A stretch of 32,000 nt of DNA from Oscillospiraceae bacterium (GCA_034927685.1 JAYFPO010000023.1:213967-245966); one strand, 5' to 3'; positions 2,452-32,000 are shown, counted from the stretch's first letter. Notes: generated from the sequence alone by a model not told the origin. Made by a program: numbers and translations.

Positions 2452-3711
2452 TCACTCCCCGGAGGCCATCCGGCCGACTGGGACCGCAACCGTGTGCGCA
2501 ATGGGCTGCCACTGGAATTTCCGAAACAACGCACTGATCGTAATTGGTATGTAGGTCATCATAAACAGAGGAAAGGTGAAGAGATACAAAATCTTCTGCG
2601 AAGTCCCGGCATCGATTCGCTTCCACTCCGAAACGGTGGTCAGCAAGCCGACCGCCCACAGAGAGCCATAGGCGCCAAGCAAAGACTCGAGCAGGAACTG
2701 CGGCAGCATCGCCCAGCCGGCCCAGAGTACCGTAGTCGTCAGGGTAAGTGCCATGACCGCAAAGGAAACCACATAGCCCCAGAAAGAAAGCGTCGCCATT
2801 TCAAAGCTGGCGTAGCCTGTCCGGCCGCCCCGCGCCATGCCGCACAGCATATCCCAGCTACAGCGGCGCGCAATTTGCATTCCACCCTGAACCCAGCGGG
2901 TTCGTTGCCGCCAGGACTGGCGAAAAGAGGACGGCTGCTCATCGTAGAGTATGGCGCCCGGGCAGTAGCCGATTCTGGCGCCGCGCGTCGCGCACCAGGT
3001 ATTGAATTCATTGTCCTCCGTCAGCGTGAAGAAGTGCCAGCCGCCGCAGCGGTCCAGCAGCGCCCGCGTAAAGCCGAAGCCCGTACCGCTGACGGCGCAG
3101 GTGGTCCCCAGCAGCATCCGGGCCTGGTTCAGATGAACGCATTCGTGAAGAAACCACAGGGCATAACCGGCGGAAATCCAGTTGTCGCTGTAATTTTTGG
3201 AGTTCCGGTAGCCACAGAAGGCTTCATAGCCGTCGCTGCAGGTCCGGTTGATCTCCGTCAGATAGTTGGAACGCAGCAGGTTATCCGCGTCAAACACCAA
3301 AAAAGCGTCATAATTCTCGTACTCCCCGCTCTCGTGAATCCGGTCCAGCAGATAGCGGAGCGCATAGCCCTTGCCGATCTCCGTCCGGTTAAACCGGCGA
3401 TAGACCCGCGCACCGAGCCGGGCGGCCACCTCTGCGGTCCGGTCTGTACAGTTATCGGCCACTACATAGGTGGTCACCAGCTCCGCAGGGTAATTCTGCG
3501 CCGCAATGCTGTCCAGCAGATAAGGCAGTACCGCCTCCTCATTCCGCGCGGCAATCAGAATCGCGTAGCGGGTTTTCTTCTCCGGACCGTGCGCCCGCCG
3601 CTTTTGAAAGAGGGGCACAAACAGATATACAATCTGATACAGATAACAGAAACTGAGCGCAGCTGTCAGCATCCGGCAGACGACTCGTAAAATTTCGATG
3701 GTATGCACCAA
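2452..3711 (-). CDS. Processive family-2 glycosyltransferase (synthase type; IcaA/PgaC/NodC/cellulose-synthase-like), integral membrane
   Basis: Motifs seen: IAARNEE, FDADN (DxD), LTEDNEF (TED) and QRTRW (QxxRW). There is an N-terminal TM segment and several C-terminal TM segments. Start placed at TTG 3711 or GTG 3708 because AGGGAGG lies 5-8 nt upstream. The track start at 3828 is a GTG without an SD. Confidence 0.8.
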   Translation of the reverse strand: MVHTIEILRVVCRMLTAALSFCYLYQIVYLFVPLFQKRRAHGPEKKTRYAILIAARNEEAVLPYLLDSIAAQNYPAELVTTYVVADNCTDRTAEVAARLGARVYRRFNRTEIGKGYALRYLLDRIHESGEYENYDAFLVFDADNLLRSNYLTEINRTCSDGYEAFCGYRNSKNYSDNWISAGYALWFLHECVHLNQARMLLGTTCAVSGTGFGFTRALLDRCGGWHFFTLTEDNEFNTWCATRGARIGYCPGAILYDEQPSSFRQSWRQRTRWVQGGMQIARRCSWDMLCGMARGGRTGYASFEMATLSFWGYVVSFAVMALTLTTTVLWAGWAMLPQFLLESLLGAYGSLWAVGLLTTVSEWKRIDAGTSQKILYLFTFPLFMMTYIPITISALFRKFQWQPIAHTVAVPVGRMASGE

Positions 3712-3932
3712 CCGTACCTCCCTTGTCCATTTTCCTGGTTTCAGCATACCCGCTGCAAAATAAAGAAACAAGGAGGGAAGTCTATAAGTTTTTCTTAAGA
3801 AAGCGGTATCTACAACTGTATCGGACACCGTTTCGCAACGGGAAACAGGACTGTTTGGGAGAAGTTTTGCAATTTTGACTGAAGTGTGGCCCGGGAACTG
3901 TGTCTATTCATACATTTGTGTTGGTTGGTTGG

Positions 3933-6900
3933 TCAGCTGACCATACGGCCGCTGTCGCCGCCCTGGAAGTAATGCTGCTCACCGCCGATGGTCTGCCAGC
4001 CGGTCAGCATGCAGCAGCTGGGCGATGCGTTAAAGCAGAAATATCCGTCGCTCTCCGCCACATATTGCAGCCCGGTGAGGGCATGGCCATCGGCCGGGTC
4101 CAGATAGAACCACGCGCCGCCAAGCTTCTGCCAACCGGTCAGCGCCTGGCCGTCTGCCTGGAAGTAGTACCAGCTGCTGCCGAGTTCCTGCCAACCGGTC
4201 AGCGTCCGGCCGCTGTCGCCGCCACGGAAGTAGTATTGCTTGCCGTGGATGGTCTGCCAACCGGTCATCATCCGGCAGCTGGGCGATGCGTTAAAATAGA
4301 AATATCCGTCGCTCTCCGCCACATATTGCAGCCCGGTGTAAGCATGGCCGTCGGCCGGGTCCAGATAGAACCACGCGCCGCCAAGCTTCTGCCATCCGGT
4401 CAGCATCTGGCCGTTTGCCTGGAAGTAGTACCAGTTGCTGCCGAGTTCCTGCCAGCCTGTGAGCATGCGACCGCTGTCGCCGCCACGGAAGTAATACTGT
4501 TTTCCGCCGATGGTCTGCCAGCCGGTCACCATGCTGCAGCTGGGCGATGCGTTAAAGCAGAAATATCCGTCGCTCTCCGCCACATATTGCAGCCCGGTGT
4601 AAGCGTGGCCGTCGGCCGGGTCCAGATAGCACCAGGAGCCGTCAAGCTTCTGCCAGCCGGTCAGCATTTGCCCGTCTGCCCCCTCGAAGTAATACGTTTT
4701 TCCGCCGATGGTCTGCCAGCCGGTCAGCATTCGCCCGTGTGACCCCCCGAAGTAATACTGTTTTCCGTCGATGGTCTGCCAGCCGGTCAGCGTCTGGCAG
4801 CTGGGCGACGCGCTAAAGAAGTAATATCCGTCGCTCTCCGCCACATATTGCAGCCCGGTGAGGGCGTGGCCGTCGGCAGGGTCCAGATAGAACCAGGAGT
4901 CGCCAAACCACTGCCAGCCGGTCTTCATTTGCCCGTCTGGTGCCGTGAAGTAATACTGTTTTCCGTCGATGGTCTGCAAGCCGAACCGCCTCTGGCCGTC
5001 TGCCCAGAAGTAGTACCAGTAACTGTCGATTTCATGCCAGCCTGAGGTTACCGTTACCGTACATGTGGCAGTTTTTCCGTTTCTTGTCGTTGCCGTGATA
5101 ATCGCGCTGCCGGGGTCTCTCGCCGTCACGACTCCTCCTGACACTGTAGCCACCGCACTGTTGCTGGTACTCCATGTGACATCCTGATGGGAAGCATCCT
5201 CCGGTAAAACCGTCGCCTCCAGTGTTTCACGGTCATGTGGCGCCAGTGTGAGCACAGTCTTGTTCAGCGCAACGCTCTGCGCCAGCACCTGCTGATCCAC
5301 AAAGACTTTGCCGGCACGATTGGCATAGGTTTCAGCGTATGTACCGCCAATGCCATAGATGAAGGTCAAGTTTGTGGATAAGAACGCATCATTAGAAATG
5401 GAGGTGACTCCCATGCCGATCGTCACGCTTGTGAGCATTCTGCAGTCCTCGAACGCAGCTTCGCTAATGCTCCTCACTCCCGCTGGTATGGCATAGCTCG
5501 CAATTATATTGTCAGCGGGGTGCCGGATCAGAACGGTTTTATCCTTGTTGTAAAGGACACCATCTGCATCGCTGCTGTATTTGGTGTTCCCGGGCGAGAC
5601 CGTAAAACTCGTGAGTGAGTGGCAGCCATAAAATACGTAACTTCCGATCCAGCTTACGCTATCCGGTATTGTCACGCTCGTGAGTGCACTACAAGTTTGA
5701 AACGCATAATCTCCAATGATCGTCACGCTGCTCCCTATTGTTACGTTTTTGAGTGAATCGCAGCTTTCAAACGCACTATTTCCAATGATCGTCACGTTAT
5801 CCGGTATTGTCACGCTCGTAAGCGAACTGCAGCCTCTAAATGCGTTACTTCCGATGCTCGTTACGCTCCCTGGAATCGTCACGCTCGTGAGTGCGTTGCA
5901 ATCCTCAAACGTATCATATCCAATTTCTGTCGTTCCATCCGGTATTGTCACGCTCGTAAGCGAACTGCAGCCTTTAAACGCACAACATCCAATGCTCGTC
6001 ACGCTATCCGGTATCGTTACATTTGTGAGCGCGCTGCAACTTATAAACGCAAAATCTCCAATGCTCGTCACGCTATCTGGTATCGTTACATCTGTGAGTG
6101 AACAGCAGCCTTGAAATGCGTATTTTCCGATGCTCGTTACGCTCTCTGGAATCGTCACGCTCGTGAGTGAGTTGCAAGCCCCGAACATATTATCTCCAAT
6201 TTCTGTCGTTCCATCTGGTATTGTCACGCTCGTAAGCTTATTGCAGCCTCTAAATGCGCCTTGTCCGATGCTCGTTACGCTCTCTGGAATCGTCACGCTC
6301 GCAAGCGAGACGCAGCCTCCGAATGCGTTACTTCCGATGCTCGTTACGCTCTCTGGAATCGTCACGCTCGTGAGTGCGTCGCAATTTGAGAACGCATAAG
6401 AGCCAACGCTCGTCACCCCGGCAGCAATTGTCACAGTCTTGATTTTGGATCTAAATGCGCCCCATAAGGATGTGGATCCCAAATTGTACATTGCACCGGA
6501 GCCTTCTATGACGAGCTCGCTGCCTCTACGCATCGCCCATGTCACTGCTTCACCGCAGCGATCTGGCGTAAAATGCAGTAACGCATTGTTAAACTGGTCT
6601 TTGTTGTCGAGAACTCCGCGTCCAGTCCAATCCATAATTGGCCCCGCGAAATACACATTTTCCAGCGCGCCGCAATTTTGGAATAAATTCAAATTTGATA
6701 CGCTCTTCACGCCGCTTCCAATCGTCACGCTTGTAAGCGCGCTGCAATCTTGGAATGCATTGTTTTGGATGCTTGTCACGCTATTTGGTATCGTCACGCT
6801 TGTAAGCGCGCTGCATCCTTCAAACGCATGATGTTCAATGCTCGTCACGCTGTCCGGTATCGTCACGCTTGTGAGCGAACGACAATTTTCGAACGCATAT

Positions 6901-7766
6901 GCTGGGATGCTTTTTATGCTATCCGGTATTGTCACGCTCGTAAGCGCGCTGCAGCCTGAAAACTCAGATTCACTGAGGCTGGTAACCGTCGCGGGTATGA
7001 CAAAATTACTCTCTGCTTTCCCGGCAGGATAACAGACAAGCTGTGTCTTATTCATGTTATACAGAACGCCGCCGTCACTAATAAACCAATTGTTTCCATC
7101 TTCTACAGCAATATTCGTGAGCGAACTACATCCGGTGAACACCTGCCCGCCAATGCTCCTCACCTTCTCCGGGATCACCACACTCGTGAGTGAGTAACAA
7201 TGAAAAAACGCATAATCCCCAATGTTCGTCACGCTATCCGGTATCGTTACGTTTGTGAGTGAGCTGCACTCGGCAAACGCGCCATAGCCGATGCTCGTCA
7301 CACACTCCGGTATGGTCACGCTCGCGAGTAAGTCGCACCTCACGAACGCCAAAGTACCAACGCTTGTTACTCCGGATGGAATTTCGACATTCGTGAGTGC
7401 AGAACAGTCAGCAAAGGCCTCTACGCCAATGCTCGTCACGCTATCTGGTATGGTCACGCTTGCGAGTGAGCTGCACCCGTAAAACGCGCCATCAATGCTT
7501 GTTACACCAGAGCCAATGGTTGCCGTATGAATGCTGGAGACGTATGCGTGCCAAGGAGGATAATATTCCTCTGAATATTCCGTCATCGGGCCAGTACCCT
7601 CAATCATAAGTTCGCCGTCGTCGTACAGCGTCCAGGTCAGCGCGGGGCCGCAGGTTCCGGTTGCTGTGACCGTTTCGCTGACGGCCAGGGCCGTCTCTGG
7701 CAAAATGAAAAAGAATAATGCAAACGCAATCAGGATGGGCATCGCTATGGACAACGCTTTTTTCAT
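3933..7766 (-). CDS. Secreted surface protein (1277 aa): signal peptide, two BspA-type leucine-rich-repeat arrays, one Big_2 Ig-like domain, 17 cell-wall-binding (CW_binding_1/choline-binding-type) repeats
   Basis: Signal peptide MKKALSIAMPILIAFALFFFILPETALA|VS. About 23-aa units of the form SLTSVTIPDSVTSIGxxAFxxC repeat many times. Big_2-like segment: VALNKTVLTLAP...TATCTVTVT. The C-terminus carries GWQxxxGxWYYF repeats. Confidence 0.9.
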   Translation of the reverse strand: MKKALSIAMPILIAFALFFFILPETALAVSETVTATGTCGPALTWTLYDDGELMIEGTGPMTEYSEEYYPPWHAYVSSIHTATIGSGVTSIDGAFYGCSSLASVTIPDSVTSIGVEAFADCSALTNVEIPSGVTSVGTLAFVRCDLLASVTIPECVTSIGYGAFAECSSLTNVTIPDSVTNIGDYAFFHCYSLTSVVIPEKVRSIGGQVFTGCSSLTNIAVEDGNNWFISDGGVLYNMNKTQLVCYPAGKAESNFVIPATVTSLSESEFSGCSALTSVTIPDSIKSIPAYAFENCRSLTSVTIPDSVTSIEHHAFEGCSALTSVTIPNSVTSIQNNAFQDCSALTSVTIGSGVKSVSNLNLFQNCGALENVYFAGPIMDWTGRGVLDNKDQFNNALLHFTPDRCGEAVTWAMRRGSELVIEGSGAMYNLGSTSLWGAFRSKIKTVTIAAGVTSVGSYAFSNCDALTSVTIPESVTSIGSNAFGGCVSLASVTIPESVTSIGQGAFRGCNKLTSVTIPDGTTEIGDNMFGACNSLTSVTIPESVTSIGKYAFQGCCSLTDVTIPDSVTSIGDFAFISCSALTNVTIPDSVTSIGCCAFKGCSSLTSVTIPDGTTEIGYDTFEDCNALTSVTIPGSVTSIGSNAFRGCSSLTSVTIPDNVTIIGNSAFESCDSLKNVTIGSSVTIIGDYAFQTCSALTSVTIPDSVSWIGSYVFYGCHSLTSFTVSPGNTKYSSDADGVLYNKDKTVLIRHPADNIIASYAIPAGVRSISEAAFEDCRMLTSVTIGMGVTSISNDAFLSTNLTFIYGIGGTYAETYANRAGKVFVDQQVLAQSVALNKTVLTLAPHDRETLEATVLPEDASHQDVTWSTSNSAVATVSGGVVTARDPGSAIITATTRNGKTATCTVTVTSGWHEIDSYWYYFWADGQRRFGLQTIDGKQYYFTAPDGQMKTGWQWFGDSWFYLDPADGHALTGLQYVAESDGYYFFSASPSCQTLTGWQTIDGKQYYFGGSHGRMLTGWQTIGGKTYYFEGADGQMLTGWQKLDGSWCYLDPADGHAYTGLQYVAESDGYFCFNASPSCSMVTGWQTIGGKQYYFRGGDSGRMLTGWQELGSNWYYFQANGQMLTGWQKLGGAWFYLDPADGHAYTGLQYVAESDGYFYFNASPSCRMMTGWQTIHGKQYYFRGGDSGRTLTGWQELGSSWYYFQADGQALTGWQKLGGAWFYLDPADGHALTGLQYVAESDGYFCFNASPSCCMLTGWQTIGGEQHYFQGGDSGRMVS
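3936..5045 (-). repeat. 17 cell-wall-binding repeats (20-24 aa) organised as a 261-nt (87-aa) higher-order repeat, about 3.7 copies
   Basis: The string ccgtcgctctccgccacatattgcagcccggtg recurs near 4045, 4305, 4567 and 4830. The unit order GWQKL(21)-GLQYV(24)-GWQTI(22)-GWQEL(20) repeats. Confidence 0.9.
5046..5282 (-). other. Big_2 (bacterial Ig-like group 2) domain within the surface protein
   Basis: aa 829-907: AQSVALNKTVLTLAPHDRETLEATVLPEDASHQDVTWSTSNSAVATVSGGVVTARDPGSAIITATTRNGKTATCTVTVT. Confidence 0.7.
5366..7532 (-). repeat. Two tandem BspA-type LRR arrays (69-nt / 23-aa periodicity)
   Basis: Each array is introduced by a C-G-x-x-(L/V)TW...G(E)L-I-EG-G-M module: GTCGPALTWTLYDDGELMIEGTGPM and RCGEAVTWAMRRGSELVIEGSGAM. 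The nucleotide motif ctcgtcacgctatccggtatcgtcacgctcgtgag recurs. Confidence 0.85.
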
Positions 7767-8398: not shown

Positions 8399-8845
8399 CT
8401 ACAAAACCAGGGTCAGCCAGTAAATGACGCCGTAAATTGCGCTCGCGACGGTGCCAAATACAATGACCGGCCCCGCAATCACGAACATCTTGGCGCAGGT
8501 ACCCAGCGTGATCGACTCCGTCTTAAACTCCATGGCCGGCGCCACGATCGAATTGGCAAACCCGGTAATCGGAACCACCGTGCCCGCGCCTGCCAGCTTG
8601 GCGATGTTGTCGTAGACGCTGAGACCGGTCAGGAGCGCGCCCAAAAACACCATGCTGATGGAGGTGGCAGTGCCCGCGTTCTGCTGCGCCAGCCCCAGGG
8701 CCGTATAGCCGTTCTGAATCAGCTGCCCAATGACGCAAATCAGTCCGCCCGTCCAAAAAGCGTTCAGAATATTCTTCCAAATGGGAGAATTTGGCGACTG
8801 CCGCTTCACATAGGCTTTATACTCCTTTTGACTCATTTTGAGCAT
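8399..8845 (-). CDS. spoVAC: Stage V sporulation protein AC (SpoVAC, dipicolinate channel component)
   Basis: Conserved blocks seen: AFWTGGLICVIGQ, AGAGTVVPITGFANS and VIVFG. The 148-aa length is typical of SpoVAC. SD AAGGGGG lies 7 nt upstream of the ATG. Confidence 0.85.
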   Translation of the reverse strand: MLKMSQKEYKAYVKRQSPNSPIWKNILNAFWTGGLICVIGQLIQNGYTALGLAQQNAGTATSISMVFLGALLTGLSVYDNIAKLAGAGTVVPITGFANSIVAPAMEFKTESITLGTCAKMFVIAGPVIVFGTVASAIYGVIYWLTLVL

Positions 8846-9270: not shown

Positions 9271-10236
9271 TCAGTTATTATTGTTGTTGGCGGAATCATC
9301 GCTGGCCAGGCTGAGGCCCATCATCGCCAACTTGTTCTGCACTTCTTCCAGCGACTTTCTGCCCATGTTGCGAACCTTCATCATGTCCTCGCCGCTTCTG
9401 GAGATCAGATCCTCGACGTTGTTGATGTTGGCACGCTTTAGGCAGTTGAAGCTACGAACCGACAGGTCCAGCTCCTCAATGGTGAGCTCCAAGACCTTGT
9501 CGCGATGTGACTCCACCTTGTCGACCACGGTGGACTTACTGGCTACGTTCTCCGAGAGATCCGTGAACAGCGCCAGATGATCGGTCAGGATTTTTGCGCC
9601 GAGGGATACCGCGTCTCTCGCAGAGATCGTGGAATCCGTCCATACCTCAAGTGTCAGCTTGTCATAGTCGGTCATGTTGCCCACGCGGGTGTTCTCCACC
9701 GTATAGTTGACTTTGTAGACCGGCGTGTAGATCGAGTCGATTGCAATGACGCCAATGGGCATCTGGGGATTCTTGTTCCGGTCCGCCGGCACATAGCCGC
9801 GGCCGTGACTCATGGTGATCTCCATGTTGAAGGTCGCATCCGGACCCAAAGTGCAGAGATGCAGCTCCGGGTTCAGAATTTCCACGTCGGAATCCGCTTT
9901 GATGTCGCCGGCCGTGACCTCGCACTCGCCAGTCGCGTCAATATAAACGGTCTTCACACCCTGGCAGTGCAGCCGGGCAATGATCTTCTTCACGTTCAGC
10001 ACGATCTCCGTCACGTCTTCCTTGACGCCGGGAATCGTAGAAAACTCATGCTGTACACCGGCGATCTTGATGGAGGTCGCGGCGGTGCCTGGCAGGGAAG
10101 AAAGAAGAATCCTTCTCAGGGAATTGCCCAGGGTCGTGCCATAGCCTCTCTCCAGCGGTTCTACGACATATTTGCCGTAGGCGCCGTTTTCGGGAGAATC
10201 CAAACACTCAATGCGGGGCTTCTCAATTTCTACCAT
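9271..10236 (-). CDS. rpoA: DNA-directed RNA polymerase subunit alpha
   Basis: [14 protein letters not shown]...[31 protein letters not shown] is the canonical RpoA N-terminus. The C-terminal domain has [17 protein letters not shown]. Confidence 0.97.
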
Positions 10237-24634: not shown

Positions 24635-24661
24635 AAAAAAGACCGACAGAATCCGTCGGCC
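24635..24661 (-). terminator. Intrinsic terminator/attenuator inside the S10 operon leader
   Basis: Minus strand reads ggccgacgg-att-ctgtcggtc (9 bp, two G-U pairs) followed directly by TTTTTT. It lies about 100 nt upstream of the rpsJ ATG and about 145-170 nt downstream of the predicted promoter. Confidence 0.55.
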
Positions 24662-24809
24662 TGGACTTTCACTGCGACGATTTACGCTGCAAGAGCAAGT
24701 TTTCAGCCGCCCGATGACCGGACATACTCCGCAGAAGTTACCGCCCTGGGGGCGCAATCTCCTGTTTCATCGCGTACCGCGGGCGACACCTAGGTTCGCA
24801 CGCTCGTTT

Positions 24810-24838
24810 ATAGTAATACACGGAGCCGTGAATGTCAA
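24810..24838 (-). promoter_or_regulatory. Sigma-A-type promoter of the S10-spc-alpha cluster
   Basis: Minus strand reads TTGACA-17 nt-TACTAT (-35 at 24833-24838, -10 at 24810-24815). An A-rich UP-like tract (aaaaaaattcatgaaaaacgccaaaatgaa) lies immediately upstream. Confidence 0.6.
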
Positions 24839-24990
24839 GTTCATTTTGGCGTTTTTCATGAATTTTTTTCTGCTTATTTAGGCATTCCAGAGATTTTTCA
24901 TGAAGCGACCGCGCAGCGGTAAAATTCACGCGCCGAGCGGTAAAATTCATTCTACGATCGTGCAAATTTTCCGCGTTTTCCTGCCGCGAT

Positions 24991-25035
24991 AACGGTCCTG
25001 CCGCAAAACTCTTTCGTTTTGCAGCAGGACCGTTT
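24991..25035 (-). terminator. Very stable hairpin closing the upstream catabolic operon (no clear U-tract)
   Basis: aacggtcctgccgcaaaac-tctttc-gttttgcagcaggaccgtt forms 19 bp with one G-U pair. It lies 55 nt downstream of the stop at 25090. Confidence 0.5.
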
Positions 25036-25089
25036 CAGATTTCAGGCTGCGAAGAGAGCCGCGGATTTCCCATGGCCCCCGCATTCTGC

Positions 25090-25641
25090 TCAGGAGCGCG
25101 ATGAGTTCCGTTGCTGGGAGTCGAAACCAGCGTCGAAGCAACCACCGTTTTTGGCGTTCCGCTTCCCCTTTTTCAGAAAATAGTGATCGACGGCGCTCCG
25201 CAGATAGTCGTGTTCAAACAGAGACGCGTGCGCGGCCAGCGCGCCGAGCATGACCACGTTGAGACCCCGCGGGTTGTCCTGTTCCAATGCCAGGTCCGTC
25301 GCAGCCACCGGCACAACGGTAATATCACTCCGATAGACCCGGCCGCTGGCCGCCATGGAGGTGTTGACTACCAAAATGCCGCCCGGCTTGATGCTTTTTT
25401 CAAACCTTGTGATGGAAGCGTCGTTCATAGCCAGAAGAATATCCAACTCCTCACAATAGGGACTTCCGATCTCTTCGTCGCTGATTTTCAGGCTGCAATT
25501 CGCTGTTCCGCCGCGCATTTCCGCTCCATAGGAGGGGAACCAGGTGACTCGCATCCCCTGTTCCATGGCGGCATCCGCCAGAATCAATCCCGCCACCAGT
25601 GTGCCCTGACCGCCGAAGCCCGCGCAAATGATTTCTGTCAT
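25090..25641 (-). CDS. 2-oxoacid:ferredoxin oxidoreductase, gamma subunit
   Basis: Start trimmed to MTEIICAGFGGQGTLVAGLILA (GxGGQG motif). AGGGAGGAA lies upstream of ATG 25641. Confidence 0.88.
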   Translation of the reverse strand: MTEIICAGFGGQGTLVAGLILADAAMEQGMRVTWFPSYGAEMRGGTANCSLKISDEEIGSPYCEELDILLAMNDASITRFEKSIKPGGILVVNTSMAASGRVYRSDITVVPVAATDLALEQDNPRGLNVVMLGALAAHASLFEHDYLRSAVDHYFLKKGKRNAKNGGCFDAGFDSQQRNSSRS

Positions 25642-25654
25642 CGTAATTTCCTCC

Positions 25655-26377
25655 CTATCCGATAAACTCGCCGACCTCAAATACCGGTCGCAGGACCTCG
25701 CCGACCTTCTTCATTGCGTCGACCGGGCTCAGATTCCAGTTCGTACTACAGGAGCTTAAAATTTCCACCAAGCAGAACCCTTCGCCGTTTTGCTGCTTTT
25801 CCATGGCCTTTTTCAGCATTTTTTTCGTGTTCCGAATTTCCCGGGGATTCTCCACGGAGCCTCTGGCCAGGTATGCGATTGGCATATGGTGCAGCGTTTT
25901 GACGACATCAAACACAGAGCCGTCCCGCCGCGGGTCGCGGCCCGCGGGCGTGGAGGTCGTCTTCTCCCCTTCCAGCGTTGTGACGGACATCTGCCCGCCG
26001 GTCATGCCGAAACAGGTATTGTTGATGACAACCGCCAGGATATTCTCATTGCGGATGGCACAGTGGATCGTGCTTTCCATACCGATGGAATAGGCCGCGC
26101 CGTCGCCCAGATAGGCGATGACCAGATTGTCCGGCCGGACACGCTTGATCCCGGCCGCCGTCGGCATTGTGCGGCCGTGGGCGCCGCAGATATTGTCAAA
26201 TTTCGTCGTAAAGCAAAGGTTGTAGCCGCAGGCCACATCCAAAGCAAGAATGACCTTCTCCGTCATCCCCAACTCGTCCGCCGCTTCCGCAAGCAGCCGC
26301 GTTGCGATGCCATGGCCACAGCCGGGACACCAGAAATTGACTTCGGGAACCAGAGAGCTTGGCGCTTTCATTTTCAT
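25655..26377 (-). CDS. 2-oxoacid:ferredoxin oxidoreductase, beta (TPP-binding) subunit
   Basis: Start trimmed to MKMKAPSSLVPEVNFWCPGCGHG (AAAGGAG upstream of ATG 26377). TPP motif YLGDGAAYSIG is present. Confidence 0.88.
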   Translation of the reverse strand: MKMKAPSSLVPEVNFWCPGCGHGIATRLLAEAADELGMTEKVILALDVACGYNLCFTTKFDNICGAHGRTMPTAAGIKRVRPDNLVIAYLGDGAAYSIGMESTIHCAIRNENILAVVINNTCFGMTGGQMSVTTLEGEKTTSTPAGRDPRRDGSVFDVVKTLHHMPIAYLARGSVENPREIRNTKKMLKKAMEKQQNGEGFCLVEILSSCSTNWNLSPVDAMKKVGEVLRPVFEVGEFIG

Positions 26378-26391
26378 GGCGATTTCTCCTT

Positions 26392-27453
26392 TCAATACCG
26401 GGAAAGCATATCCCGCGCGATGCCGATGATGTCTTTTGTCGCCGGTACCGTTAGGAAATTGCCATAGCACTCCACGGGATAGTTACAGTTGGTATTCAGC
26501 AGAATATCCTCCCGCATTTTCCCGAGCATGCTCATCTCGACGGAGACAAAGCCTTTCACCTGACTCCCCAGCTGATCGAAGGCCGTCTTCGGGAAGGGCC
26601 AAAGGGTAATCAGCCGGATCAGCCCCAAGCGAATGCCTTCTTTTCTGGCAAGGCGGACCGCCTCCTTGCAGATTCTCGAGCTGATGCCGTAGGCAACCAG
26701 AACGATTTCCGCATCGTCCGTCTGCACGGATTCCCATCGCTGCTCCGTCTCCTCAATCCGCTTCCAGCGCGCGTTCATGATCTCCTGATAGCTGGCATAG
26801 TCGTCCAGCAGGCCATAGACGTTGGCGATTGTAATCTGCTTTTCGCCCTCCCTGCGGCCGCGCACGACGTAGTCGAACTGATTGATATCATGCTCCCTGC
26901 GTTCCGGCAGCTCGACCGGTTCCACCATCTGTCCGATGGTCGCGTCGGAGTTGATGATGACCGGCATCCGGTAGGTTTCCGCCAGGTCAAAGGCCAGTCC
27001 GACCATGTCGGCGCTGTCCTGCACGCTGGCAGGCGCCAGACTGATATGGCGGTAGTCGCCGTGGCCGCCGCCGCGCGTCGCGAGCCAGTATTCTCCCTGG
27101 CTCTGGCTGACCTCGCCCAGACCCGCGCCCGCCCTGGAGACATTGGCGACCACGCACGGAATCTCCGAGGACGCAATATACGAGAGTCCCTCCATCATCA
27201 GGGAGAAGCCCGGGCCGGAGGTCGACGTCATGGCACGCGCGCCCGCGCCGGCGGCGCCAAATACCATATTGATCGCCGAAAGCTCCGACTCCGTCTGCAC
27301 AAAAACGCCGCCATAATCCTGAATCATATGTGCTGCCAGATATTCCAGCACCTCCGATTGCGGTGTGATGGGATAACCGGCAAAAAACCGGCAGCCAAAG
27401 CGCATGGAAGCCTCCGCAAACGCCTCGTTCCCCTTCATGAGTACCTTTGCCAT
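26392..27453 (-). CDS. 2-oxoacid:ferredoxin oxidoreductase, alpha subunit (VorB/KorA-like)
   Basis: MAKVLMKGNEAFAEASMRFGCRFFAGYPITPQSEVLEYL... is the canonical OFOR alpha N-terminus. Length is 353 aa. Confidence 0.9.
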   Translation of the reverse strand: MAKVLMKGNEAFAEASMRFGCRFFAGYPITPQSEVLEYLAAHMIQDYGGVFVQTESELSAINMVFGAAGAGARAMTSTSGPGFSLMMEGLSYIASSEIPCVVANVSRAGAGLGEVSQSQGEYWLATRGGGHGDYRHISLAPASVQDSADMVGLAFDLAETYRMPVIINSDATIGQMVEPVELPERREHDINQFDYVVRGRREGEKQITIANVYGLLDDYASYQEIMNARWKRIEETEQRWESVQTDDAEIVLVAYGISSRICKEAVRLARKEGIRLGLIRLITLWPFPKTAFDQLGSQVKGFVSVEMSMLGKMREDILLNTNCNYPVECYGNFLTVPATKDIIGIARDMLSRY

Positions 27454-27467
27454 CGTTTCACTCCTCC

Positions 27468-27668
27468 CTATCCCAGAATTTCAATGACGTAATCCGGGCA
27501 CATGGTATAGCAGATTCCGCACTGAACGCATTTCTCCTGATCGACCTGCACCACGGGATAACCTTTTGCTCCAACCGTCTCAGAGGGCGACAGCGCGCCC
27601 TGCGGACAATGCTCCACGCAGAGGTAGCAGCCCTTGCAGAGGTTCAGATTCAGTTTGATTCTATCCAT
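27468..27668 (-). CDS. 2-oxoacid:ferredoxin oxidoreductase, delta subunit (2x[4Fe-4S] ferredoxin)
   Basis: 66 aa with CKGCYLCVEHCP and CVQCGICYTMCP. Confidence 0.85.
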   Translation of the reverse strand: MDRIKLNLNLCKGCYLCVEHCPQGALSPSETVGAKGYPVVQVDQEKCVQCGICYTMCPDYVIEILG

Positions 27669-27684
27669 AACGACTCCCCTCTCT

Positions 27685-28794
27685 TCATTCGTCCGGCAGC
27701 AGGCCGTGCTTTTTCATGATTTCCCTGCAGGCCGCCACAAGCGCCCGGTTCTGGTCCATCCGGCCGACGGTGATCCGTGGGAACTGGAAGGTGCCGCGGA
27801 TCACAATGCCGTAGCTGCAAAGCTCGTCGGTCAGTTCCATGGCGTCCATATGCGCATCCGCGTAAATGAAGTTGGACTGCGAGTGATAGACCTTCCAGCC
27901 CATCTTCCCAAATTCTTCTGTCAGGTATTTCCTGCCCTCCGCGATTCCCGCATGTGTCATCGCGACGTACTCCTCGTCGTCGAGGGCGGCGCAGGCTGCA
28001 TCCAGCGAGGACTGCGTCATCGCAAACACGCCGATATTGGAATCGATGATGTTCGCCAGCTCCTGCCTCGCGACCGCATAGCCGATCCGCGCGCCGCCCA
28101 GGCCGTACATCTTTGACAGCGTTTTCATGACGACCACATTATAATCATGGATCATCGGCAGCATGGAGCGATACGCCGGCTCATCCGCAAAATCCAGATA
28201 GGCCTCGTCCACCACAACGATCACATGTTCCGGTACTTTTTTGATAAACGCCTCGAGCTGGTCTCCATTCACCGCCACGCCCGTTGGATTATCCGGATTG
28301 CAGATCCAGACGATTTTCGTCTGATCCGTAATGGCATTGTACATGGCGTCCAGATCCACCTCGTAGTCGGCGGGGTCGAGCTCCAATACAATGGCGTCCG
28401 TCTGCGTACGGTTGGCGTAATACTCATAGCCGAAAGACGGCTCATAGCAGATCATAACATCGCCCGGACGGAGGAAGGACCAGGTGAAGGCATCCTGCAA
28501 ATGCGTGGTGCCGTTGCTGATGGCAAGATTGTCCGGCGTAATCCCATTCCCCAGCTTTTCACAGAGCTTTTGCCGCAGCAGGCGGCTGGATGGTTCCGTA
28601 TAATACTGGATGGTCTCGGCGGACTTTTTCAGCGCCGCGACCGCCTTGGGCGATGGGCCGTAGGGATTCTCGTTGGAGCCCAGACGGATCAGTTCGTCCT
28701 TTCCGCTAAGCTCCCGCACCTTCTGCAAATCCTTGCCCAATTTATACTCCGGTTCTCTGTCGCATCCCTTAATGATGTATTTCTCAATATCCAT
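27685..28794 (-). CDS. HisC-family (class II) PLP-dependent aminotransferase
   Basis: Motifs seen: LGSNENPYGPSP, NPDNPTG, DEAYLDF and KTLSKMYGLGGARIGY (PLP lysine motif). GAGGAG lies 6 nt upstream of the ATG. Confidence 0.88.
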   Translation of the reverse strand: MDIEKYIIKGCDREPEYKLGKDLQKVRELSGKDELIRLGSNENPYGPSPKAVAALKKSAETIQYYTEPSSRLLRQKLCEKLGNGITPDNLAISNGTTHLQDAFTWSFLRPGDVMICYEPSFGYEYYANRTQTDAIVLELDPADYEVDLDAMYNAITDQTKIVWICNPDNPTGVAVNGDQLEAFIKKVPEHVIVVVDEAYLDFADEPAYRSMLPMIHDYNVVVMKTLSKMYGLGGARIGYAVARQELANIIDSNIGVFAMTQSSLDAACAALDDEEYVAMTHAGIAEGRKYLTEEFGKMGWKVYHSQSNFIYADAHMDAMELTDELCSYGIVIRGTFQFPRITVGRMDQNRALVAACREIMKKHGLLPDE

Positions 28795-28806
28795 GCGGTT
28801 CTCCTC

Positions 28807-30204
28807 TCATCGATAGCTTTCCGGAATCAGTTCTTCCAGAATAGCCCGCTGTGCCTGATCCAACTCCGGCGCCTGATATTGCTGGATTCTCTCCCGCCAA
28901 GCCGCTGCCGCCATCGTCTCCGCCGTGGGACATTCTTTGGCGATCCATGCGTTGTGGCCGTCCCGCTGTACCAGCTTCGGCATATAGTAATCCGTGTGAT
29001 AGCTTTTCTGCGTGCGTTCAAAGCTCTGGCCGGTCGGGCCAGTCTTTTTCATCTTCTCGAACATCAGCGTTTCGTCGCTGACGGTATAGCCGCGCAGCAG
29101 CCTCTGAAAGCCCAGAATCCGCTCCTCGTCCAGCAAGAACTTTTCATAGCTGACCGCGTTGTAGGAATCCAGAACCGCCGTGGAATGCAGCATACAGTCC
29201 ACGCCGTTCATGTACGCGGTAAACAGGTTCATGAACGTCTCCGCGCCGCACTGATAGTCCAGCGCCTTGGAATCGGTGTTCGCGTTTCCGCTGTGGACGG
29301 GCAGACCATAGAATTTTCCCATCTGATAGGCGGTCGCACCGGACAGCATGGCCTCAATGCCGCCGTAAGCCGCGGCGGAGGTCATCCGCAGATCGTCCGA
29401 GTCCGTCTTTCCGCTGTAGACCACCGGCGTGCCGGGGCTGATGAGCTGCGTCAGCACCAGGGCGGCCAGAATCATGGCGTTTCCAAGCGTATAGTCGGCC
29501 GCCAAAGACTGCGGTGTCGTGATGCCGAACGACTGGCCCGGGCCGATAATCAGCGGCTGACGCTCTTTGGCGTAGACCATCAGCGCCTCGCACATGGCGG
29601 TATTCAGCCGCATGGGACCCATGGTATCGATCAGGCCGAGGGAAATCGGCTTGTCCTGAACGCCATAAAACCGGCGCATCGCCGAAAGGCCCATTTCCGC
29701 CGCCGCCTTGCCCTCCACCAGGCCCATCATCGGCTTGGTGCAGTACTGGAGCGCGACTCCGATGCGGTATTTCTCGCGCTGCTCGTGGGGAACATAGGAG
29801 ACGTCGATGATGTTGGCGTTGGCGGCTTCCACCACCTGGCTGGTTTCGCAGAGCTTGTGAAAGTTAACAAGATGCTGGTGGCTGCTCTTTTCGTAGTTCC
29901 CATCCACGAGGACATAAATGGGACCGTAGGCGGGCAGCGCATGCGTGCTGCCGTCGCCAACCGTAATCTTGTCGCCGAGTCTGCCATACCAGTCGAAGCT
30001 GCCGGGAACGGTCCGCAGTGCCTCTTCCACCATTTCTTTCTCAATGTACACGGTCTGGCCGTCTACCCTGGCGCCATGGCGGCGGAACACTTCCACAGCC
30101 TCTTCGCAGTGGAACGCCGCACCGATTTCGCTGAGGATTCGCAGGCCGCACTCGTGGATTTTTTCCGGACCGTCCTGACCGCCTATGCCGTAATGCAGTT
30201 TCAT
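28807..30204 (-). CDS. MttB-superfamily (trimethylamine methyltransferase-like) protein, non-pyrrolysine type
   Basis: 465-aa uninterrupted ORF. The N-terminus (...PEKIHECGLRILSEIGAAFHCEEAVEVFRRHGARVDGQTVYIEKEMVEEALRTVP) and overall length match the MttB family pattern. GGGAGG lies 6 nt upstream of the ATG. Confidence 0.8.
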   Translation of the reverse strand: MKLHYGIGGQDGPEKIHECGLRILSEIGAAFHCEEAVEVFRRHGARVDGQTVYIEKEMVEEALRTVPGSFDWYGRLGDKITVGDGSTHALPAYGPIYVLVDGNYEKSSHQHLVNFHKLCETSQVVEAANANIIDVSYVPHEQREKYRIGVALQYCTKPMMGLVEGKAAAEMGLSAMRRFYGVQDKPISLGLIDTMGPMRLNTAMCEALMVYAKERQPLIIGPGQSFGITTPQSLAADYTLGNAMILAALVLTQLISPGTPVVYSGKTDSDDLRMTSAAAYGGIEAMLSGATAYQMGKFYGLPVHSGNANTDSKALDYQCGAETFMNLFTAYMNGVDCMLHSTAVLDSYNAVSYEKFLLDEERILGFQRLLRGYTVSDETLMFEKMKKTGPTGQSFERTQKSYHTDYYMPKLVQRDGHNAWIAKECPTAETMAAAAWRERIQQYQAPELDQAQRAILEELIPESYR

Positions 30205-30221
30205 TAGGAACCTCCCGCCTC

Positions 30222-32000
30222 TTATTTCTCCGTCAACACGATCAAGGCGTCCGCGATGGAGACGCCGTGCTCATATACTTTTACTGGATTCAGGTCCATT
30301 TCCGTCAAATGGTCCCGGTTTTCACTGGCAAACCGGGAGACTGCGGCCATCAGCACCGAGAGCGCGTCCAGGTCCAGCGGCGGCGCGCCGCGATAGCCGG
30401 AGAGCAGCGGGAATGCGCGCAGCGTGCGAATCATCTCCATCGCCTCCGCCCGATTCAAGGGCACGGGGTAAAGCGCCACGTCGTGATAGAGTTCCGCAAA
30501 AATTCCGCCCAGGCCAAGCAGCAGCATCGGGCCGAACTGCGGATCCCGCTTGACGCCCAAAATGACCTCGATCCCCTTCGGCAGCATTTTCTGCACCAGA
30601 ACGCCGTTGACCACGGCTTGCGGCGCCAGTCTGGCAACGCTTTCCCGAATGGAGCGGTAGGCGTCGCGTACTTCCTGCTCGGTTTTCAGATTCAGAGCCA
30701 CGCCGCCGACATCCGATTTATGCGGAATCTCCGCCGACTCCACCTTCAGCACCACAGGAACCCCGATTTCCTTCGCGGCGACAATCGCGTCTTCCTCGCT
30801 CTTCGCCAGGACGCCAAGATCGACCGGAATGCCGGCGGCTTTCAGAAGCATCCGGCTGTCCCATTCGCCGAGCATCCGCGTTTTCCCGGAGGCCCTGGTC
30901 GGCAAGGCCAGGCACAATTCCCGGTGCGCATGGGAATACTGCGCAAAATCGCGCAGATGCCGGAGCACCTGGAACGCATATTGCGTGCATGGCAGCACGG
31001 GAACGCCCAGATTTTCGAACTTGCTCTCCAGGTCCCGGTTGCGCGACATCTCAATGAAGTTCAGGCAGGCAAATGGCTTGTCCGTCTGCGCGAGGGCCTT
31101 TTCAATTCCCTCAAACATGATATAAAAGGAATGGTCGACAATTTCATCCATCAGCGTGAAGCCGAGCAGCACCATATCCACATTGTCGTCCCGCAGCACC
31201 GCCAGCAGGGTCTCCGCCAGCGTATCCGGGTCATAGGCCGGCGTAGCCGTGATATCCAGCGGGTTGTTCTGCGGCGACGCATAAAACGGAAGGAGACCCC
31301 GGAGCTTCTCAACCGTTTCCTCGCTGAAGTCCGCGTAGGTGATCCCTGCCTTGAACCCCTCGTCGGCGCAGATCGCGGTCTCTCCGCCGGAGAGACAGAC
31401 CACGGAAAAGCGACTGCCCTTCGGCAGCGTGCGCATGGTCGCAAAGGCCAGCGAGGTGCTCAGCAGCTCCTGCATGTCGTCCACGCGAAGAACGCCGTAT
31501 TTCCAGAAGAGCGCATCGTACACCGCGTCGGAGCCTGCCATGCTGCCGGTATGTGAGCTGGCAATCTTTCCCGCCCGCGCGCTTTTGCCTACCTTCAGCG
31601 CCACCATCGGCTTCCTTTTGATCGCCGCCTTCCGCAGGCATTTTTCAAAGCGGGCCGGATCATTGACGCCCTCCAGATAGAATGCGACAACTTTGGTATC
31701 GGCATCTTCGATCAGAAAATCCAGGTATTCTTCCAGCGGCACGGCCTTGCTGTTTCCGCAGGAGATACAGTAGGAGAACGTCATATTGGGGCTGTCCATC
31801 AGGGACATGCAGACCTGGCCGCTCTGGGAAACAAAACCGACCTTGCCCTGCCTGTCGCGATGCGGATGCTCGATGGCATAGCAGAACTTCTGGTCCACAT
31901 AGTTCACAAAGCCGCAGCAGTTTGGCCCCATAATCGCGAGGTCCAGCTCTTTGGACAGTCGAACCAGCTCGGCTTCGTCCTGTTTGCCTTCCTCCGTCCC
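30222..32000 (-). CDS. NDP-forming acyl-CoA synthetase (ACD; fused CoA-ligase and ATP-grasp domains), N-terminus outside window
   Basis: The frame stays open to the window edge (GTEEGKQDEAELVRLSKELDLAIMGPNCCG...). Motifs GPNCCG, VSQSG and SSHTGSMAGS (phosphohistidine loop) are present. The C-terminal ATP-grasp region includes VPVVLKVESAEIPHKSDVGGVALNL. Confidence 0.85.
   Translation of the reverse strand, partial: GTEEGKQDEAELVRLSKELDLAIMGPNCCGFVNYVDQKFCYAIEHPHRDRQGKVGFVSQSGQVCMSLMDSPNMTFSYCISCGNSKAVPLEEYLDFLIEDADTKVVAFYLEGVNDPARFEKCLRKAAIKRKPMVALKVGKSARAGKIASSHTGSMAGSDAVYDALFWKYGVLRVDDMQELLSTSLAFATMRTLPKGSRFSVVCLSGGETAICADEGFKAGITYADFSEETVEKLRGLLPFYASPQNNPLDITATPAYDPDTLAETLLAVLRDDNVDMVLLGFTLMDEIVDHSFYIMFEGIEKALAQTDKPFACLNFIEMSRNRDLESKFENLGVPVLPCTQYAFQVLRHLRDFAQYSHAHRELCLALPTRASGKTRMLGEWDSRMLLKAAGIPVDLGVLAKSEEDAIVAAKEIGVPVVLKVESAEIPHKSDVGGVALNLKTEQEVRDAYRSIRESVARLAPQAVVNGVLVQKMLPKGIEVILGVKRDPQFGPMLLLGLGGIFAELYHDVALYPVPLNRAEAMEMIRTLRAFPLLSGYRGAPPLDLDALSVLMAAVSRFASENRDHLTEMDLNPVKVYEHGVSIADALIVLTEK

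Follow-up and report, generated by a model that had tools for sequence, protein, structure and literature searches.

Introduction

Why is a methyltransferase of the MttB superfamily encoded among genes for amino-acid oxidation? This question is raised by a 32,000-nucleotide stretch of DNA from an Oscillospiraceae bacterium (GCA_034927685.1 JAYFPO010000023.1:213967-245966; the whole stretch is referred to below as the window), in which seven closely spaced minus-strand genes encode, in transcriptional order, an ADP-forming acyl-CoA synthetase (ACD), a non-pyrrolysine MttB homolog, a HisC/aromatic-type aminotransferase and the four subunits of a 2-oxoacid:ferredoxin oxidoreductase (OFOR) (Table 1). 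Gene content and order place the block, in reshuffled form, with a cluster found repeatedly in other Clostridia, which might encode the demethylation of an onium compound followed by fermentation of its carbon skeleton.

In Firmicutes of the gut and rumen, dozens of MttB-family genes lack an assigned substrate, and MAGICdb lists the non-pyrrolysine members as "MtxB", with the substrate unassigned (PMC10653893). The handful with assigned substrates act on glycine betaine, proline betaine, carnitine, gamma-butyrobetaine or phosphocholine, and all end at an excreted demethylated amine. A conserved cluster of the present kind predicts an onium nutrient that would donate a methyl group and also provide an amino-acid skeleton for fermentation, which leads to a short list of substrates. 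If this is true, anaerobes would have an extra route for removing dietary onium compounds without making trimethylamine, and the origin of host-relevant acids or betaines might be explained.

Recurrence of the MttB–OFOR–ACD Cluster

Linkage was examined from three sides, centred on MttB, on ACD and on the aminotransferase, with about a dozen loci in all. MttB orthologues (45-70% identity) usually lie in a standard corrinoid methyltransferase locus, which holds genes for a pterin-binding methyltransferase II (MT II), a corrinoid protein, MttB of clade A and/or clade B (see section The MttB Clade and Its Binding Pocket), a major facilitator superfamily (MFS) carrier, an OpuAC-type ATP-binding cassette (ABC) transporter, a DUF1638 protein and a GntR protein. 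DNA past the transporter is readable in 11 clade A/B loci, four of which (L010, L011, L046, and L047/48) continue with OFOR genes in the order delta-alpha-beta-gamma, then ACD and an aminotransferase, and MttB lies directly upstream in L010, L011 and L046. The OFOR and ACD orthologues of the linked loci are 61-68% identical to those of the window. Within the ACD clade, contexts were readable for L046 (68% identity), L047/48 from Mobilibacterium timonense (62%) and L010 (62%), and the layout common to these is MFS carrier, OpuAC-type ABC transporter, OFOR, ACD and a type II branched-chain aminotransferase (BCAT). The BCATs of the linked clusters are of the class IV branched-chain type and score 389-423 bits against an NCBIfam equivalog cut-off of 307. 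Proteins common to the clusters are 60-78% identical to each other. L010 and L011 are labelled Lachnospiraceae, L047/48 is from Mobilibacterium (Anaerovoracaceae), L046 is an unclassified metagenome scaffold, and the window is assigned to Oscillospiraceae. The pairing is not confined to one bacterial family: at least a second shares it, and further families probably do.

The window differs from these loci in two respects. Its gene order is ACD, MttB, aminotransferase and OFOR, whereas in the others MttB is followed at a distance by OFOR, ACD and aminotransferase, and it has a HisC/aromatic-type enzyme where the others carry BCAT, so that the role of the aminotransferase is kept by non-orthologous genes. 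The closest MttB orthologue (L003, 70% identity) shows a third arrangement, in which BCAT adjoins MttB. The first-pass annotation of the window had called for a survey of related genomes, and conservation of the neighbourhood is borne out: OFOR and ACD follow quaternary-amine transporters in L010/L011, L046 and L047/48, with MttB upstream in the three loci named above. The co-occurrence of MttB, a HisC-like aminotransferase, OFOR and ACD, for which it proposed this survey, holds for MttB with OFOR and ACD, but the HisC-like enzyme is replaced by class IV BCAT. Likewise, the embedding of MttB in a catabolic module that it described recurs as linkage, but the exact position between ACD and aminotransferase is unique to the window among the loci examined.

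A rival explanation is that there is no functional link, and that MttB and its neighbours came by chance to be located next to a module of general use in amino-acid fermentation and have been carried together with it by descent or horizontal transfer. Several observations speak for this or weigh against a functional reading of the cluster. OFOR and ACD are absent from seven of the 11 informative loci (L008, L014, L015, L019, L020, L022 and L026), which makes the extension optional, and most MttB orthologues do not adjoin OFOR–ACD. The sample of linked loci is small (a handful), and four of them have one gene order, which might go back to a single ancestral fusion. No MttB gene or fragment was seen in Mobilibacterium, in which two assemblies are interrupted some 500-600 bp ahead of the MFS gene. 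In addition, the approximately 40 MttB paralogues in Firmicutes such as Eubacterium limosum raise the odds of a chance neighbour (PMC8604678). However, the window keeps the linkage with another gene order, another class of aminotransferase, and 12-17 nt spacers with ribosome-binding sites; all of the ACD-clade orthologues examined lie directly after onium transporters; and the cluster proteins have diverged to the identities given above yet are still adjacent. Because the adjacency persists through rearrangement, a swap of aminotransferase class and a wide taxonomic spread, it appears to have been selected rather than to be accidental. Chance linkage of MttB, OFOR and ACD is unlikely on these comparative grounds, and the absence of any functional link is improbable.

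Some of these loci have further features. In M. timonense, a cultured species with the cluster in GCA_016901405.1, the genes continue past BCAT (L047:10085-12255) with an aldehyde dehydrogenase gene and then a PAS_6/HTH_22 regulator gene, and the best NCBIfam matches of the dehydrogenase, all sub-threshold, are betaine-aldehyde, aminobutyraldehyde and succinate-semialdehyde dehydrogenases. The break ahead of the MFS gene falls at one point in both independent Mobilibacterium assemblies and hints at a repeat there. DUF1638 genes recur beside the corrinoid methyltransferase loci L004, L008, L010, L014, L015 and L022. In L001:11421-12862 and L002:4443-5884, an inserted AbiEii-family toxin gene and its partner separate a clade A MttB gene from two genes for class III aminotransferases.

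The MttB Clade and Its Binding Pocket

The MttB protein of the window is full-length with respect to its family profile PF06253, of the TIM-barrel MttB fold (289 bits, with residues 10-460 aligned to positions 36-492 of the 500 in the profile), and is encoded by a 465-amino-acid reading frame without an in-frame stop, and so without a UAG codon for pyrrolysine. Its score against TIGR02369, the equivalog of pyrrolysine-containing trimethylamine methyltransferase, is 208, far under the cut-off of 525. The protein is identical to GenBank MEA4965866.1 (P0001), from an Oscillospiraceae metagenome-assembled genome, and its matches in the PDB are MtgB and MttB, the best of which is MtgB (9yce/2qne; E 2e-78, phmmer 267 bits).

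MtgB holds glycine betaine by cation–pi interactions with Tyr97 and Phe356 and by contacts of Arg312 and His348 with the carboxylate, and Arg312 is reported to be conserved in MtgB, MtpB, MtcB, MtyB and MthB, whose substrates are all acidic quaternary amines (PMC13080624). The active site was compared by aligning solved MtgB with 21 sequences of the family, taken from the window and the retrieved loci, and a further alignment (A1) took together 31 orthologue sequences of clade A (about 60% identical to the window MttB) and clade B (about 48%). The position of MtgB Arg312 is occupied by His304 in the window MttB; in A1, this column holds His in 23 of the 31 sequences, Gln in seven (clade B) and Arg in one. 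The aromatic pair is kept, as Tyr93 and Tyr348, and at the position of MtgB His348, clade A has His or Gln and clade B has Met. Other paralogues of the same loci retain both Arg and His, for example an MtcB/MtyB-like gene beside a sigma-54 activator and an MFS carrier, as does a 'Ca. Formimonas' DCMF gene. As the carboxylate-binding Arg312 of every characterised member is replaced by His, the window clade is likely to have a new specificity. Identity as MtgB, MtpB, MtcB, MtyB or MthB was rejected, because those enzymes keep Arg312 and the window clade does not.

The first-pass annotation also considered that the MttB fold might have been recruited to a different role that does not involve a corrinoid, such as the binding or modification of an amino-acid substrate. 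The change of Arg312 to His and the lack of a visible corrinoid protein gene in the window are compatible with this idea. However, orthologues with the same His (clade A, 62-64% identity) lie between genes for pterin-binding MT II and corrinoid protein in L004, L008, L010 and L011, that is, in complete corrinoid methyltransferase systems; among these four loci, a RACo-type activase is present in L010 only. Moreover, the aromatic pair for the onium nitrogen is kept. The company of corrinoid protein and MT II supports a genuine methyltransferase I (MT I) role for MttB, and a recruited role is disfavoured as the least probable of the explanations weighed here.

Clade B has features of its own. 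It has Met at the positions of both His348 and Phe356, and a Peptococcaceae/Adiutrix subgroup also has Asp at the position of Tyr97. Clades A and B are often found in one locus (L003, L004, L008 and L013), sometimes with two corrinoid proteins and one MT II, and the pair may catalyse consecutive steps or take related substrates.

Enzymes of the Oxidative Half

The OFOR is encoded by four contiguous genes with the domain types Fer4, POR_N plus PFOR_II, TPP_enzyme_C and POR (Pfam). The delta subunit contains two CxxCxxCxxxCP motifs, CKGCYLCVEHCP and CVQCGICYTMCP, and the beta subunit contains a CPGCGH cysteine motif and the thiamine pyrophosphate (TPP) motif GDG-X27-NN (GDGAAYS...VINN). The alpha subunit belongs to a VorB-like subfamily (NF005507, score 431.6 against a cut-off of 399) and is 61-63% identical to the alpha subunits of L010, L046 and L047, and the gamma subunit matches PF01558 (1.6e-40) and TIGR02175 (87.9 against a cut-off of 81.1).

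ACD contains the domains Succ_CoA_lig (PF13607, 1.4e-41) and ATP-grasp_5 (PF13549, 2.4e-71). Its N-terminal 105-110 residues or so, including the CoA-binding domain, are outside the window, and the alignment to NCBIfam models of the ACD type starts near profile position 105; full-length orthologues have 698-701 amino acids and contain PF13380. The motif SHTGSMAG (SSHTGSMAG in the translation), which corresponds to the catalytic phosphohistidine loop of the family, is present. The orthologue clade is discrete, with members at 61-68% identity and the next relatives at 54% or less, and a metagenome scan with the window ACD returned relatives at 31-38% identity only. ACD-type genes are common in Clostridia, and a pathway that ends in ACD is less unusual there than the first-pass annotation had implied.

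The aminotransferase belongs to PF00155 (1.9e-49, 169 bits) and contains the pyridoxal phosphate-lysine motif TLSKMYGLGGARIGY. Its score against the hisC equivalog TIGR01141 is 269.2, just under the cut-off of 276.55, and its best PDB match is 4r2n, a "putative phenylalanine aminotransferase". The gene is flanked by MttB (12 nt) and OFOR delta (16 nt), with no histidine-biosynthesis context. Its four nearest homologues are 46-50% identical, and the two with readable context, P0123 (50%) and P0124 (46%), occur within aminotransferase–OFOR clusters that lack MttB. The P0123 loci (L035-L037) also hold an amino-acid permease and a CoA-transferase, with OFOR subunits 28-39% identical to those of the window, and the P0124 contig (GCA_016648615.1) has an MFS gene and neither a permease for amino acids nor a CoA-transferase. 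A housekeeping hisC identity was rejected in view of the sub-cut-off score, the catabolic contexts of the nearest homologues and the embedding in the operon, and the enzyme is probably catabolic.

Two of the related settings deserve description in themselves. In L035:3400-11146, L036 and L037, a LysR-regulated module comprises OFOR gamma-delta-alpha-beta, the CoA-transferase, the amino-acid permease and the HisC-like aminotransferase, and has genes for recombinase, transposase, Fic and HEPN proteins at its flanks (human-gut metagenomes); it looks like mobile-element cargo. In L038-L040:2755-12111, a more distant relative of the aminotransferase, P0125 (42% identity), which is abundant, with 648 member sequences, follows an Opp-type peptide ABC transporter and precedes a 2-hydroxyacid dehydrogenase; this setting is the reductive counterpart (amino acid to 2-oxoacid to 2-hydroxyacid) of the oxidative module in the window.

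The reactions of OFOR, ACD and aminotransferase are reversible, and the gene content would be the same if flux were biosynthetic: ACD would activate a short branched or aromatic acid, OFOR would reductively carboxylate the acyl-CoA with reduced ferredoxin from methyl-group oxidation, and the aminotransferase would make an amino acid. Anaerobes of the rumen and gut are known to make amino acids from branched-chain acids by reductive carboxylation. However, one carboxylation takes two of the six electrons released per methyl group oxidised and costs ATP, and the clusters contain no acid transporter except an AEC-family carrier in L046. Such reverse flux is very improbable.

A Proposed Serial Pathway and Its Candidate Substrates

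Genes for onium transporters adjoin the OFOR–ACD–BCAT genes with gaps of about 20-55 nt, and no amino-acid transporter is present in these clusters. The ABC binding proteins of the linked loci match the structures of OpuBC, OpuCC, ProX and EgtUC, and for this reason the imported compound is most likely an onium compound, predicted from the altered pocket to be bound by MttB unlike in all characterised cases.

In the pathway proposed here, the onium compound would be imported by the MFS carrier and the OpuB/OpuC/EgtU-like ABC system. MttB would move one methyl group to Co(I)-corrinoid, and MT II would pass it to tetrahydrofolate. The carbon skeleton would carry, or after demethylation expose, a free alpha-amino group, and would be transaminated to a 2-oxoacid and oxidatively decarboxylated by OFOR with reduction of ferredoxin; the acyl-CoA thioester would finally be converted by ACD to an acid with formation of ATP. 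This serial pathway, with a probability of about 0.5, is favoured by the tight joining of onium transporters to OFOR, ACD and aminotransferase, by the lack of an amino-acid transporter in these clusters, by the retention of the aminotransferase role across two enzyme classes and by the unusual pocket of MttB. The direction of flux, of which the sequence itself carries no mark, and the action of both halves on one molecule are inferences.

The candidate substrates that fit best are those that need a single demethylation and already have an alpha-amino group, namely S-methylmethionine, which would yield methionine, and N-epsilon-trimethyllysine. Methionine is accepted by branched-chain and aromatic aminotransferases and by VOR-type OFORs. 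S-methylmethionine would then end as the acid 3-methylthiopropionate, and trimethyllysine as products of the delta-valerobetaine type. Three-step demethylation of an alpha-N-trimethyl amino acid is possible but less likely, as its sole precedent is the stepwise conversion of glycine betaine to dimethylglycine and sarcosine, which has only been proposed, without enzymology (PMC9768040).

The pathway also has to contend with what is known of the family and with the genes at hand. We know of no characterised MttB-family enzyme that yields a primary amine or acts on a sulfonium compound or an amino acid. Neither dimethylglycine nor sarcosine is a substrate of MtgB (PMC13080624). BCAT and the VOR-like OFOR look like ordinary enzymes of branched-chain amino acids. 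No gene for a corrinoid protein, MT II or activase was found within window positions 25090-32000, so that in this organism these partners must be encoded upstream or elsewhere; MtpB, MtcB and MtyB of E. limosum share one distant MtqC/MtqA pair (PMC12155760), which indicates that an MttB gene can lie apart from its partners. With His or Gln in place of Arg312, clades A and B could be the first MttB-superfamily enzymes to act on an onium amino acid, in which case the cluster would be a complete fermentation pathway not known before; this reading is rather improbable.

Some of the same evidence would fit an arrangement in which the two halves act on different molecules and are co-regulated, each balancing the other. 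Oxidation of an amino acid of the branched-chain or aromatic type by aminotransferase and OFOR would supply reduced ferredoxin, the betaine methyl group and CO2 would be converted to acetyl-CoA via the carbonyl branch of the Wood-Ljungdahl pathway, and ACD would take ATP from both thioesters, in a Stickland-like pairing with the methyl group as electron sink. BCAT passes its equivalog cut-off and OFOR alpha is VorB-like, both being of the standard branched-chain type; the methyltransferase and transporter core stands alone in seven loci, as expected of a self-sufficient betaine module; and demethylating acetogens such as E. limosum feed methyl-tetrahydrofolate into the Wood-Ljungdahl pathway (PMC12155760). 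However, the clusters have no transporter for the amino acid to be oxidised, whereas aminotransferase–OFOR modules without MttB do carry amino-acid permeases, and the clade lacks the Arg312 of all characterised betaine demethylases, which argues against an ordinary betaine as substrate. Parallel coupling of this kind is possible, but falls well short of probable.

Operon Anatomy and Surrounding Genes

All seven minus-strand reading frames described by the first-pass annotation are present in the translation of the window, and its family assignments (ACD, non-pyrrolysine MttB, HisC-family aminotransferase and four-subunit OFOR) agree with Pfam and NCBIfam profile searches (Table 1).

Table 1. 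Features of the MttB–aminotransferase–OFOR–ACD block in the window.
Feature	Position	Strand	Basis
ADP-forming acyl-CoA synthetase (ACD), fused alpha-beta type, N-terminus truncated by window end	30222..32000	-	PF13607, PF13549
Non-pyrrolysine MttB-superfamily methyltransferase (MT I), clade A	28807..30204	-	PF06253
Class I/II (HisC/aromatic-type) aminotransferase, probably catabolic	27685..28794	-	PF00155
OFOR delta subunit, 2x[4Fe-4S] ferredoxin-like	27468..27668	-	Fer4 families, Cys motifs
OFOR alpha subunit, VorB-like subfamily	26392..27453	-	PF01855, PF17147, NF005507
OFOR beta subunit, TPP-binding	25655..26377	-	PF02775, Cys and TPP motifs
OFOR gamma subunit	25090..25641	-	PF01558, TIGR02175
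Stem-loop, probable transcript 3' end or stabiliser	24987..25037	-	Perfect 19-bp stem, folding energy

The gaps between the genes, from ACD to OFOR gamma, measure 17, 12, 16, 14, 14 and 13 nt, within the range reported by the first-pass annotation. Every downstream gene starts with ATG a few bases 3' of a GGAGG-like motif, and the motifs of the six downstream genes are GGGAGG, GAGGAG, GGGGAG, GGGAGGAG, AAGGAG and GGGAGG. The ACD reading frame is open up to base 32000, which places the 5' end of the operon beyond the window, as had been proposed. A terminator scan found no match in any intergenic gap of the block, in agreement with the lack of hairpins noted before; within the block as a whole, 10 weak terminator-like matches occur in 7.6 kb, which is not in excess of the number expected from shuffled sequences (7.7 +/- 2.9). 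The closing hairpin that had been noted is a perfect 19-bp stem at 24991-25034, which extends to the limits given in Table 1 and is located 53 nt past the gamma stop codon; its RNA folding energy is -41.4 kcal/mol (z-score -9.1 against 200 shuffles), and no U-tract is present 3' of it.

The next downstream unit has its own sigma-70-like promoter (TTGACA-17-TACTAT at 24838-24810, minus strand) and an S10-Clostridia ribosomal-protein leader (Rfam RF03136 at 24704-24778; 36.7 bits, gathering score 35.1) ahead of rpsJ (24534). From the spacing, the ribosome-binding sites, the closing hairpin and this separate promoter and leader, the seven genes appear to form the 3' portion of a single operon with the hairpin at its end, and co-transcription, which the first-pass annotation had also proposed, is inferred from this anatomy. 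A search of the window and seven related loci with Rfam yielded no T-box and no cobalamin riboswitch, the S10 leader being the sole match. A composition anomaly pointing to horizontal transfer was rejected, as the GC content of 0.55-0.61 at 25-32 kb is in line with that of the rest of the window.

The remaining window contains the S10-spc-alpha ribosomal super-operon on the same strand, together with unrelated genes. In the S10 control region (24640-24838, minus strand), a terminator-like hairpin with a T-run at 24662-24640 resembles an attenuator and precedes rpsJ. A SpoVAC/SpoVAEB sporulation membrane protein gene (8399-8845, minus strand), which suggests a spore-former, is located downstream of rpoA (9271-10236, same strand), and beyond it are genes for a family-2 glycosyltransferase (2452-3828) and an M20 peptidase (1002-2225). 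A predicted surface protein of 1277 amino acids (3933-7766, minus strand) has six BspA-type leucine-rich-repeat units, Big_2 and C-terminal choline-binding repeats, and these last hint at choline-decorated cell-wall polymers alongside genes of quaternary-amine metabolism.

Comparison With Known Systems

In the literature searched, MttB is nowhere described in combination with an aminotransferase, OFOR or ACD, in line with the first-pass annotation, which knew of no characterised system of this kind, and nowhere linked to S-methylmethionine, trimethyllysine, valerobetaine or amino-acid betaines.

The MttB half resembles the MtgB/MtgC/MtgA system of Desulfitobacterium hafniense and MtpB, MtcB and MtyB of E. 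limosum, which act with MtqC, MtqA and RamQ. The window protein covers PF06253 in full, lacks pyrrolysine and keeps the aromatic residues for the onium nitrogen, and its orthologues are flanked by genes for corrinoid protein, MT II, quaternary-amine transporters and, in L010, a RACo-type activase. Unlike these systems, the clade does not have Arg312 (His in the window MttB, Gln in clade B). Moreover, the known MttB systems stop at the demethylated tertiary amine and are unlinked to genes for catabolism of the carbon skeleton, unlike the window cluster.

The choline pathway of E. limosum offers a parallel, in that the MttB-family gene mthB is clustered with an enzyme outside the methyl-transfer step, the choline kinase MthK, which acts on the same molecule and was described in 2025 as the first such case of an accessory enzyme (PMC12155760). 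Unlike the partners in the window, which would act after demethylation and yield ATP, MthK acts before demethylation; no kinase is present in the window cluster.

In the peptide fermentation of Thermococcales, an aminotransferase, a 2-oxoacid:ferredoxin oxidoreductase (VOR, IOR or POR) and ADP-forming acyl-CoA synthetase act in succession. The window has the same three activities and the same logic of substrate-level phosphorylation by ACD. It differs in that it is bacterial, ACD is a single fused polypeptide and the genes form one predicted operon with MttB, to which the relatives add onium transporters. The gut clostridial clusters L035-L037 and GCA_016648615.1 share with the window a HisC-like aminotransferase next to a four-subunit OFOR, but lack MttB and onium transporters; in addition, L035-L037 carry an amino-acid permease, a CoA-transferase in place of ACD, and the more distant OFOR described above. 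What is new, by comparison with these systems, is a recurrent cluster architecture for which no earlier description was found and an uncharacterised MttB clade with an altered binding site, each half of the cluster being of a known kind.

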